A DNA stretch of 64,000 bases from Enterobacter phage vB_Ecl_SABI, in sequence record PQ864023.1. The stretch is one strand, 5' to 3'. Below, one piece after another: positions 44,706 through 46,777 of the stretch (positions within the stretch are counted from its first letter, which is position 1; each line of letters begins with the position of its first letter). The notes under the pieces were generated by a model. It searched no databases, had not been told where the DNA came from, and saw only the letters and a program-made list of their open reading frames with translations. The position numbers were made by a program, and so were the translations under genes.

Positions 44706-44909
44706 TTAACCTCTGGTTTGTTTGATTTCAGGAACAAATTGCATTACACATTTTTGGTTCCTGGGAATATTAAGTTCACACTCAGTTTTCTTAGCCTTTA
44801 CTTCTTTTGTTACAGACATATAAGACAATATACCCATAGCAATGAAGCCTAAGATGAACCCCATTAATAGGATGGTTTTCCAGTCAGGATTTTTTACAAA
44901 GTCACTCAT
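44706..44909 (-). CDS. small membrane protein, 67 aa
   Basis: One strongly hydrophobic helix; lies between two ATPase genes with 3-nt spacing. Confidence 0.4.
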   Translation of the reverse strand: MSDFVKNPDWKTILLMGFILGFIAMGILSYMSVTKEVKAKKTECELNIPRNQKCVMQFVPEIKQTRG

Positions 44910-44911
44910 AG

Positions 44912-45667
44912 CTATACCTGTAGGAAATATTGGTGAACGAGTTGACTTACGATACGAACACCAATGGCATTCTTCTTGTAGGCCATCTTAATCTGAGCCT
45001 GAATTTCGTTGATGATCTTCTTCTTCTGGTTTTGCTTACTGAAGGCTTTCAGATATTCCATCAGAAGAATGTTCTCTGGGACGAGATCCAGGAGTGATTG
45101 AAGTGATGGGCGAGTAGTGCTGAAGTGCAGAGCTACACGCCCCAGAAATTCTGTACGTACACCCATTTCACGCATCCGTTCATGGGTAAGGTTAGCCTCA
45201 CCATTGAATGCTCCGGCAAACACGAATAGCGTCTGCCCTACATTAACCTTTTCATATTTACCGTAGTCGCCAAATACGCTGGCTGTATCGCTTTCCAACA
45301 TGGTCAGAAATTCATTCTGGACACCAGCAAGGGCTTCATGAGTATCTCCGCCTACACCGTTGGTGAACAGCTTGTCGAACTCATCTACGAAGATAACGAT
45401 GCCACCTGTAGCGTTCATGTTACGCAGGGGAGTTAAGGCTTTCGATAATGAGTTACCGGATACGCCTTCTTTAGTTAAGCCAGCAGCATTGACTTCGAGT
45501 ACCTCGATATCACGCTCTTTGGCTAACGTTTTAATGAGATGTGACTTACCCGATCCTGATTCACCAGACAAAATGAAGTGAGGACGGATTACACCACGGG
45601 AACGAGTATACGCATCGAAGACACGGCCTAATACGCCAGCAACTTCTTCTTGTTCTGGGAGGATCAT
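44912..45667 (-). CDS. AAA+ ATPase, 251 aa (ClpX/HslU-like small ATPase core)
   Basis: Walker A SGESGSGKSHL, Walker B IVIFVDEFDKL. Confidence 0.6.
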   Translation of the reverse strand: MILPEQEEVAGVLGRVFDAYTRSRGVIRPHFILSGESGSGKSHLIKTLAKERDIEVLEVNAAGLTKEGVSGNSLSKALTPLRNMNATGGIVIFVDEFDKLFTNGVGGDTHEALAGVQNEFLTMLESDTASVFGDYGKYEKVNVGQTLFVFAGAFNGEANLTHERMREMGVRTEFLGRVALHFSTTRPSLQSLLDLVPENILLMEYLKAFSKQNQKKKIINEIQAQIKMAYKKNAIGVRIVSQLVHQYFLQV

Positions 45668-45744
45668 ATTTATTCCTTAGAAATTGGGATGATATTCATA
45701 AACCTGGCTTGATTTAAGCCAGGTTAAGGAAAGCACCAGTGGGA

Positions 45745-46581
45745 TTATTTAACAGGTACAAACGGTGTAGAGGCACCTGGGATCATGGTGGTAGGCAATA
45801 CACCATTCCACTTGTTGATTGCTTCCAGTTCCATTACACCAGGGTTTTCACGCAGTGCATCACCACGCAGTTTGATGGCATCAGCTTCTGCTTTTGCTTT
45901 CAGTACCACGGCGTCAGCTTCACCTTTGGCTTGCTCACGAGCCATGTTTGCTTCAGCAATACGCTGTTGCACTTCCTGCTCGCGTTGCAGAGTTTTCTGG
46001 GTGGCTTCAACCTTCGCGTTAATTGCACGCTTCACGTTGTCCGGGTATTCCGGGGCACCTACCCAGGAGATGGCCATAATGTCGATACCGACCGGCTCCA
46101 TCTCTTTTTTAACTGCATCGGCTACGCTATCCAGCAGACGAGACTTACCACCGTCAATAAACTTGTCAGTGTTAATCAGGTTGCCCTGACGGTTCAGGAT
46201 ATCGGCAATACGCTGACGCAGATCCTGGTCAGTGATTTCATCGACACCTTTACGGTAGGTCTGGAAGATAGTCGCTACTTTGGTCGGATTGACCTTATAG
46301 CTGATAGCCAGTTGGTGGCCGATCTGAGTACCGTCCGACAGTTGGAAGTAAAACTTTTCGTCGTAGGTCTTCATCTGCTTGAACGTCGGGAACGTATACA
46401 GATCTTCGTTCCAGCCGATCCAGTAACGGCCAACGCCTTTGACCTGTTGGTCAACGCCTTTATCGTCGCCCAGACGGTTGACGATGATACCTACGTTACC
46501 TGGTTCGACACGATCATAGCAGCCGGTCAACGAGGTCATTGCAACGACTGCCAGAATGCAGCCCATGATGAGTTTACGCAT
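45745..46581 (-). CDS. SPFH/band-7 (prohibitin/HflK-like) lipoprotein
   Basis: Signal peptide with lipobox (…MTSLTGC), then an SPFH core and a C-terminal Ala/Glu/Lys-rich coiled coil (EQEVQQRIAEANMAREQAKGEADAVVLKAKAEADAIKLRGDA). Confidence 0.65.
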   Translation of the reverse strand: MRKLIMGCILAVVAMTSLTGCYDRVEPGNVGIIVNRLGDDKGVDQQVKGVGRYWIGWNEDLYTFPTFKQMKTYDEKFYFQLSDGTQIGHQLAISYKVNPTKVATIFQTYRKGVDEITDQDLRQRIADILNRQGNLINTDKFIDGGKSRLLDSVADAVKKEMEPVGIDIMAISWVGAPEYPDNVKRAINAKVEATQKTLQREQEVQQRIAEANMAREQAKGEADAVVLKAKAEADAIKLRGDALRENPGVMELEAINKWNGVLPTTMIPGASTPFVPVK

Positions 46582-46777
46582 TTTTAAATTTCTTCTTAAA
46601 TTGACGATAGACGAAAGTGGCTACCAGAGCAGGCCACACCAGAGCACCGGCAATGCCGATGAACACGAGGATAGTATCGTTAGCCGATACCATTGACGGC
46701 AGCAAGCCACCGTATAACACACCTGACACGAGTAATATGATTACTGCGTACAGGTAGAGTTTGAGGTACTTATTCAT
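46574..46777 (-). CDS. small two-TM membrane protein (possible NfeD-like SPFH partner), 67 aa
   Basis: Overlaps the SPFH gene start by 8 nt; two hydrophobic helices and a basic C-terminus. Confidence 0.4.
   Translation of the reverse strand: MNKYLKLYLYAVIILLVSGVLYGGLLPSMVSANDTILVFIGIAGALVWPALVATFVYRQFKKKFKNA

Follow-up and report, generated by a model that had tools for sequence, protein, structure and literature searches.

A translationally coupled pair of genes for a two-TM protein and an SPFH lipoprotein in an N4-like Enterobacter phage

In the genome of Enterobacter phage vB_Ecl_SABI (sequence record PQ864023.1), a gene for a small protein with two transmembrane (TM) segments and a gene for a lipoprotein of the SPFH family form a conserved, translationally coupled unit. 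The two genes lie on the minus strand at 46777–45745 of the stretch of 64,000 nucleotides (nt) that was analyzed, which is referred to below as the window. They represent the ordinary gp19/gp20 pair of phage N4, which belongs to a widely annotated phage family, and their adjacency to an ATPase gene in the window is incidental. The explanation that we regard as the best overall, with a probability of about 0.5, is that the pair is a mobile coupled envelope cassette whose products would build a periplasmic cage at the inner membrane during lytic growth, the neighbouring AAA+ gene and a further gene for a small one-TM protein being separate from it. The window itself is from an N4-like (Schitoviridae) phage, since it carries an open reading frame (ORF) of 3623 amino acids (aa) at 57–10928 on the plus strand, sized like the N4-type virion RNA polymerase, and since its closest database relatives are Schitoviridae.

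The coupled gene pair and its distribution

The earlier note on this DNA, made from the letters alone, had described four co-oriented minus-strand ORFs, and the ORF list confirmed all four at the coordinates that the note had given, together with the 8-nt overlap of the two-TM and SPFH ORFs (46574–46581). Each of the four matched a PHROG family (1130, 200, 5534 and 7508 in the order of the genes, E-values from 1e-18 to 1e-97), so all four are genuine genes, not ORFs that arose by chance. By hydropathy, the upstream small protein has two TM segments, the downstream one has a single TM segment and the 278-aa protein has one segment that resembles a signal peptide, and the motifs that the note had named (GESGSGKSHL, IFVDEFDKL and the lipobox LTGC at residues 18–21) were all found in the sequence.

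The conservation of the pair was analyzed in 88 SPFH loci, comprising 80 IMG/VR loci with an SPFH alignment and 8 GenBank loci. By phmmer, a two-TM ORF was located directly upstream of the SPFH gene and on the same strand in 83 of them. Inspection of the five misses revealed a two-TM ORF in four more (three sub-threshold and one N-terminally disrupted), which gives 87/88 loci overall, and the sole true exception is a Staphylococcus phage with the one-TM protein MbpV in this place. Among the four genes that the earlier note had grouped into one cluster, only the two-TM and SPFH pair was conserved as a unit when the cluster was checked in related genomes.

The earlier note had also supposed that the genes are not part of the canonical N4 description, which is at odds with the N4 genome: there, the gene for gp19, a protein of 68 aa with two TM segments, shares 8 nt with the gene for gp20 (278 aa, lipobox LTSC), just as in the window, and this same pair is located just downstream of the RNAPII genes. 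The SPFH protein of the window is 81% identical to N4 gp20 and 97% identical to gp31 of Shigella virus Moo19, and the partner is 40–47% identical to its N4 and Moo19 counterparts. In Moo19, gp31 is annotated as 'SPFH protein, similar to phage N4 gp20, predicted HflC', and gp30, upstream of it, as 'similar to N4 gp19'. The 67-aa two-TM protein of the window (46574–46777, minus strand) was assigned from the ORF list, its match to PHROG 1130 (E = 1.2e-18), its tblastn match to N4 gp19, the family alignment and its position, and it shares with the N4 gp19-like family the length, the two TM segments, the motif in the turn between them and the location upstream of a PHROG 200 gene.

The SPFH protein is widespread among phages. 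By tblastn it was detected in 680 phage records, including N4-like, rV5-like, P2-like, Felix-O1-like and jumbo phages, phages of Caulobacter, Myxococcus, Burkholderia and Pseudomonas, and the Staphylococcus Kayvirus group. The partner family is also present in P2-like P88 and rV5-like GAP31, in Agrobacterium phage OLIVR5 (PHROG 1130, E = 7e-9), in Pseudomonas PSA34, where it is found two genes upstream of SPFH, and in Burkholderia E354, where it is an unannotated ORF. In P88 the pair belongs to an early lytic operon, because it is located between cox and the replication gene. Furthermore, megablast matches of the P2-like cassette were obtained in 714 of 5426 complete Escherichia coli (E. coli) genomes (13%), with about half of the places on plasmids, and tblastn detected SPFH in 745 plasmid records, 688 of them non-mobilizable. 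The plasmid examples listed are 90–115 kb long and come from E. coli, Yersinia pestis and Salmonella; judged by size and host, the SPFH-bearing plasmids presumably resemble the pMT1/pHCM2- and P1-type phage-plasmids.

Predicted fold, anchoring and topology of the two proteins

On its modelled structure, the 278-aa protein (45745–46581, minus strand) is an SPFH-fold protein that best resembles the cage subunits HflK/C, prohibitin and erlin. The Pfam search for Band_7 that the earlier note had suggested gave 80.7 bits for PF01145 over residues 24–206 (E = 1.7e-22), above the gathering score of 23.6, and the protein matched PHROG 200 with E = 2e-96. In the AlphaFold2 model (single chain, alignment of 27 sequences, mean predicted local distance difference test score 76), an alpha/beta SPFH domain is followed by one continuous helix at residues 181–245 (45847–46041, minus strand), which would correspond to the coiled-coil wall of SPFH cages. 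Foldseek search of this model against the PDB obtained 64 chains with E <= 1e-3, and among the matches listed (50 of 64) all were SPFH-family or major-vault proteins. The best full-length matches were HflK/C (7vhq, 4.8e-14) and prohibitin-2 (8rrh, 7.8e-14), followed by erlin (9vvj, about 2e-12), stomatin (about 2e-11), flotillin (about 2e-8) and QmcA (1e-7). Searched with phmmer against the PDB, the sequence matched solely the coiled coil of prohibitin-2 (PHB2 6iqe, E = 3.6e-5, residues 198–262). The SPFH assignment of the earlier note and its long coiled coil are thus borne out by profile, model and structural matches, and the conserved coiled coil together with a C-terminal KW.G..P motif suggests assembly into a ring or cage.

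Orthology to HflC or HflK was rejected, because the NCBIfam equivalog scores are far under their cutoffs (24.7 vs 134.4 bits for TIGR01932 and 15.9 vs 159.4 bits for TIGR01933). The protein also departs from HflK and HflC in that a lipobox replaces the N-terminal TM anchor and that there is one SPFH gene and no heteromeric pair. Orthologues in GenBank and UniRef bear the labels 'serine protease' (many), 'tail length tape measure protein' (one) and 'putative transposase' (another one), all of which are apparent misannotations. The label 'serine protease' may stem from the ClpP-class NfeD proteases, which are encoded beside SPFH genes.

The putative lipoprotein signal peptide (46519–46581, minus strand) reads MRK, then LIMGCILAVVAMTS, then LTGC with Cys21, and thus has a basic N-region, a hydrophobic core and a lipobox. 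Of 120 close SPFH homologues, 117 retain the lipobox, and Cys21 is invariant in both homologue alignments (A1 and A2), in agreement with the lipoprotein signal that the earlier note had proposed. At +2, 60 of the 120 homologues have Tyr and 50 have Asp, and the protein of the window has Tyr. In E. coli, Asp+2 is the canonical signal for retention of lipoproteins at the inner membrane, and aromatic +2 residues can retain model lipoproteins. Judged by these sequence features, the SPFH protein is probably exported, lipidated and located at the inner membrane. A variant allele (P0055) encodes a 265-aa SPFH form that has lost the core of the signal peptide by a deletion between two 'GC' dipeptides. 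A Pasteurella prophage 'HflK/C-like' protein, PM0222, which was reported in outer-membrane vesicles (PMC9872710), is a possible relative and is not used as evidence here.

In the family alignment of the two-TM partner, the motif Y..L.P..(V/I)S is conserved at the TM1-turn-TM2 hairpin, in addition to Gly and Pro in TM2, and the best-conserved residues are those of the inter-helix turn. The protein has a basic C-tail, with basic residues at both ends, so by the positive-inside rule both ends are predicted to be cytoplasmic and the conserved turn periplasmic. A search against 1.84 billion representative proteins returned only 17 matches, and since all of these are 61–84 aa long, fusions of partner and SPFH protein are rare. 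Two assemblies, independent of each other, contain one such in-frame fusion (P0067, 347 aa, at 4001–5044 of locus L113), whose topology fits the model of a membrane hairpin plus a periplasmic SPFH domain. The earlier note had placed the partner in an NfeD-like position. Its position, translational coupling and conservation agree with that proposal, but NfeD identity was rejected: Pfam gave only a weak spurious match to IncD and none to NfeD (E <= 0.1), and 67 aa are too short for an OB-fold.

Exchange of the cassette and its possible functions

Analysis of a close relative revealed the limits of the cassette. The 75-kb contig L091 is about 95% identical to the window (blastn), and its homology covers 49267–46788, 45747–44913 and 44706–41000 of the window, with breaks between. 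The breaks at 46787/46788 and 45747/45748 coincide with the ends of the two-gene cassette, and the other gap in the homology corresponds exactly to the 67-aa one-TM gene. Because the two gaps match exactly the cassette and the one-TM gene, the region consists of three independent units, namely the SPFH cassette, the AAA+ gene and the one-TM gene. The cassette slot of L091 (9124–9920 of the contig) comprises 797 nt and contains two unrelated 130-aa lipoprotein genes, one of PHROG 26640 and the other of Pfam Phage_VG64/PHROG 478. The slot, which lies between a 108-aa gene and the AAA+ gene, is a place where genes for envelope proteins are swapped, and in sister phages one or two unrelated lipoproteins of about 130 aa are present in it, either replacing the SPFH pair or added to it.

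The SPFH gene is the sole part of a 5-kb region with 85–90% nucleotide identity to phages of other genera. Compared with Moo19, the window shows 97% identity for the SPFH protein, about 40% for the partner and 37% for the ATPase; compared with the loci L014 and L015, it shows about 85% for the partner and 71% for the SPFH protein. Because the SPFH identities are uncoupled from those of the flanks and the partner, the sequence comparison indicates a recent exchange of the SPFH gene, with breakpoints at gene boundaries. A gene for an HNH_3 homing-type endonuclease (47093–47458, minus strand, Pfam E = 5e-17) is located two genes upstream of the cassette, and HNH genes are found 0–2 genes from the SPFH pair in N4 (gp22), Moo19 (gp32), L009, Tribble and GAP31. 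Co-conversion by a homing endonuclease was considered as the cause of the 90% nucleotide identity to the Moo19 SPFH gene and found no support, as the tract of high identity stays within the SPFH gene and does not reach the HNH genes.

In the explanation that we favour, the SPFH protein would be exported and lipid-anchored via the lipobox cysteine, and its long C-terminal helix would mediate assembly into a ring- or cage-shaped oligomer. HflK/C, prohibitin and erlin are all oriented to the non-cytoplasmic side of the membrane, and two of the three have FtsH-type proteases as partners. By analogy with this common orientation, the phage cage would be placed on the periplasmic face of the inner membrane, where the hairpin protein would serve as its integral-membrane anchor or be its client. 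Transcription of the cassette would take place early or midway in lytic growth, as its positions after the RNAPII genes of N4 and in the early operon of P88 suggest, and the cage would fence off a membrane patch and thereby alter a conserved host inner-membrane component. That the target is a conserved one is suggested by the high conservation of SPFH across very different phages. Cage formation, physical contact between the partner and the SPFH protein, and the target are all proposed by analogy. FtsH may be ranked first among the candidate targets, since HflK/C and prohibitins work with proteases of the FtsH type, and it is put forward as a tentative choice. A broader and rather doubtful proposal is that the gp19/gp20-type pair might be a mobile 'split-anchor' SPFH system, whose periplasmic HflK/C-like cage would capture a conserved host machine, FtsH being one example, or insulate a membrane patch during lytic growth. 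If true, such a split-anchor SPFH system would be a general host-takeover strategy of unrelated lytic and temperate phages.

Several observations weigh against the periplasmic cage and its coupled cassette. The Foldseek E-values of the SPFH subfamilies are only a few orders of magnitude apart, the HflC and HflK equivalog scores are far under cutoff, and the cage and the FtsH link are drawn by analogy. Tyr at +2, where Asp would be the canonical residue, may leave outer-membrane sorting possible. There is an extra small ORF between the partner and SPFH genes in GAP31 and PSA34, and inspection of the phiEa21-4 locus found no TM protein upstream of SPFH. The uncoupled identities of partner and SPFH protein argue against tight co-evolution. 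Additionally, the unrelated lipoproteins in the slot fit a dispensable exclusion-type gene at least as well as a protease modulator. In the literature on phage SPFH proteins and on N4 gp19/gp20, we found annotations and speculation only and no functional study. The authors of a 2026 paper on a phage of the Schitoviridae state that it 'remains unclear' why an SPFH gene is present (PMC13239085).

One alternative, which we consider unlikely, is that the cassette is an accessory for superinfection exclusion or for blocking a receptor or DNA entry, and would keep the DNA of other phages or of progeny out of infected or lysogenic cells. This alternative would account for a slot shared with other small lipoproteins in sister phages, one of which is weakly Cor-like at its N-terminus (PHROG 1119, E = 1e-5, mostly signal peptide), for the P22 gp17-like 'superinfection exclusion' gene that adjoins the cassette in N4 and Moo19, for the filing of PHROG 1130 as 'moron/host takeover', and for the frequency of the cassette in prophages and phage-plasmids (the 714/5426 E. 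coli genomes and 745 plasmid records described above). However, exclusion proteins are usually narrow and fast-evolving, and the SPFH protein is far more conserved (64% identity between N4-like and P2-like versions) and more widespread (Gram-negative, Staphylococcus and jumbo phages) than would be expected of such a protein. The P88 pair is part of an early lytic operon, away from the positions typical of lysogenic conversion. Moreover, no PADLOC model matches the SPFH protein: the search of PADLOC-DB obtained no match for it or for either small protein, and for the AAA+ protein only weak P-loop-level matches (E >= 5e-4).

To a similarly small degree we credit the alternative of a role in lysis timing or membrane protection, in which the partner and the SPFH scaffold would delay the triggering of the holin, or would stabilise the inner membrane, either in long infections or against depolarising abortive-infection systems. 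The lysis of N4 is strongly delayed, the partner is class-II-holin-like (about 67 aa, two TM, basic C-tail), and the MbpV/MbpS genes of Kayvirus directly follow the holin and endolysin genes, a resemblance of the proteins to holins having been noted by the authors of the Kayvirus study (PMC7150955). According to a reference cited in PMC11153139, the SPFH protein YdjI of Bacillus subtilis tethers PspA to the membrane, which would suit a protective role. However, the N4-like and P2-like cassettes are far from the lysis genes and are expressed early or in mid-phase, MbpV has one TM segment and is unmatched to the two-TM family (no phmmer match in the A5W locus), and some phages that are nearly identical to that of the window lack the cassette.

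SPFH cages (HflK/C, prohibitin, stomatin, flotillin and erlin) have been structurally resolved only recently, and their roles in bacteria are debated. The phage cassette is common, has a dedicated 67-aa partner, and shows clean presence or absence between near-identical phages. These natural isogenic pairs with and without the cassette provide a simple genetic handle on what an SPFH cage does for a virus and on the function of the host membrane that it controls, and make the question of the SPFH family directly testable. The SPFH family as a whole is therefore of more interest than the pair of the window alone.

The neighbouring genes and comparison with known systems

The 251-aa AAA+ protein (44912–45667, minus strand; PHROG 5534) is, judged by its sequence, a minimal ClpX/HslU-like ATPase. 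It matched Pfam AAA with 54.6 bits against a cutoff of 21.2 (E = 2e-14), and ClpX was its top match in both the PDB and NCBIfam (E about 1e-12). True ClpX identity was rejected, with an equivalog score of 48 bits against a cutoff of 359. The gene is part of the phage backbone and usually stands directly before a gp24-like ATPase gene. In 24 IMG/VR loci with the AAA+ gene, an SPFH gene was present within a neighbourhood of 10 kb in only two, and within the same distance the AAA+ gene was present in only 6 of the 88 SPFH loci. In the window it is followed by an N4 gp24-like ATPase gene (PHROG 1297, 43669–44703, minus strand), with which it may form a functional ATPase pair. Directly after the stop of this 344-aa ATPase gene, there is a GC-rich hairpin, TGGGGCTTCGGCCCCA, with a T-run (43649–43664), which resembles an intrinsic terminator readable on both strands.

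Another hairpin (45701–45725, minus strand) lies downstream of the SPFH stop, within the 77 nt that precede the AAA+ start. It has a perfect 10-bp stem, a 5-nt loop and a weak T-tail, and its folding energy is -19.1 kcal/mol (z = -2.8). The hairpin belongs to the backbone common to relatives without the cassette, as the homology of L091 resumes at 45747, and may serve to stabilise RNA or as a weak terminator. In a terminator scan of 43–48 kb, no canonical terminator was found between SPFH and AAA+, and a sigma-70 promoter scan of the same interval detected fewer promoter-like sites than in shuffled sequences.

The 67-aa one-TM protein (44706–44909, minus strand) matched PHROG 7508 (E = 1.2e-18) and contains two Cys and the C-terminal motif CELNIPRNQKCVMQFVPE. 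The corresponding part of the window (44707–44912) is without counterpart in L089, L091 and L093. A homologue in EK8 is located upstream of a lipoprotein gene, another in Moo19 (gp33) is located two genes downstream of the SPFH gene, and the gene-order map of N4 shows none near the pair. From this comparison, the one-TM gene is an independent and precise single-gene insertion relative to L089, L091 and L093.

The four-gene membrane module of the earlier note, in which the ATPase would power or regulate SPFH assembly, is highly improbable: the genes are adjacent and co-oriented with short gaps in the window, and SPFH and AAA+ are within about 500 nt in its nearest relatives L009 and L010, but even there an extra lipoprotein gene lies between the two, the AAA+ gene is absent near the pair in N4 and Moo19 and from the side of SPFH in Tribble-like Klebsiella phages (order 2TM-SPFH-(235 aa)-79 aa-ATPase), is upstream of the cassette and separated from it by two genes in Erwinia phage S6, and occurs in EK8, L091 and L093, which have no SPFH gene, the one-TM gene is missing from L009, L091 and L093, and the AAA+ protein, which has no TM segment or signal sequence and is thus cytoplasmic, would be on the other side of the membrane from the SPFH domain, which is predicted to be periplasmic. 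The AAA+ and one-TM genes vary independently of the SPFH pair even in genomes that are about 95% identical, so the module does not hold.

Elsewhere in the window, the GC content is 0.40–0.42 at 54001–60000 and 0.45–0.50 in the remainder, which maybe marks a differently acquired block. ARAGORN found no tRNA genes in the window.

Compared with known systems, the pair of the window is closest to N4 gp19/gp20 and Moo19 gp30/gp31, which have the same genes, order, 8-nt overlap and lipobox position. They differ from the window in the flanking genes, with no ClpX-like AAA+ gene beside the pair. The AAA+ protein shares with ClpX and HslU the Walker A and B motifs, and its EFLGR aligned with the EFIGR of ClpX, a region that holds arginine residues of ClpX. 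Unlike ClpX, it starts near the AAA+ core and has no zinc-binding N-domain, and when aligned with ClpX (8yd0) it has GVSG where the pore-1 motif GYVG would stand, with loss of the Tyr. Additionally, the gap between its two ClpX-aligned segments seems too short for the IGF (ClpP-docking) loop.

The SPFH-NfeD operons (QmcA-YbbJ, 8z5g; YqiJ-YqiK; PH1511/PH1510) share with the phage pair a small membrane gene that is translationally coupled to SPFH. They differ in that the phage partner has no NfeD domain and that QmcA, which faces the cytoplasm, is a weaker fold match (E = 1e-7). Similarly, in the Kayvirus pair MbpV/MbpS a small membrane gene is directly before a homologous SPFH gene (28% identity, tblastn E = 2e-12). 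In contrast to the window pair, MbpS is apparently TM-anchored and has no canonical lipobox (LLMC), MbpV is 102 aa long with one TM segment, and the two genes adjoin the lysis genes.

HflK/HflC-FtsH (7vhq, 7wi3) and PHB1/2 (8rrh) share with the phage SPFH protein the SPFH1/2 domains, the long coiled coil and a C-terminal segment. By prediction, the phage protein would also resemble HflK/C and PHB1/2 in its position on the non-cytoplasmic side of an energised membrane. Unlike HflK/C, the phage system has a lipobox anchor, a single SPFH gene and a 67-aa hairpin partner.

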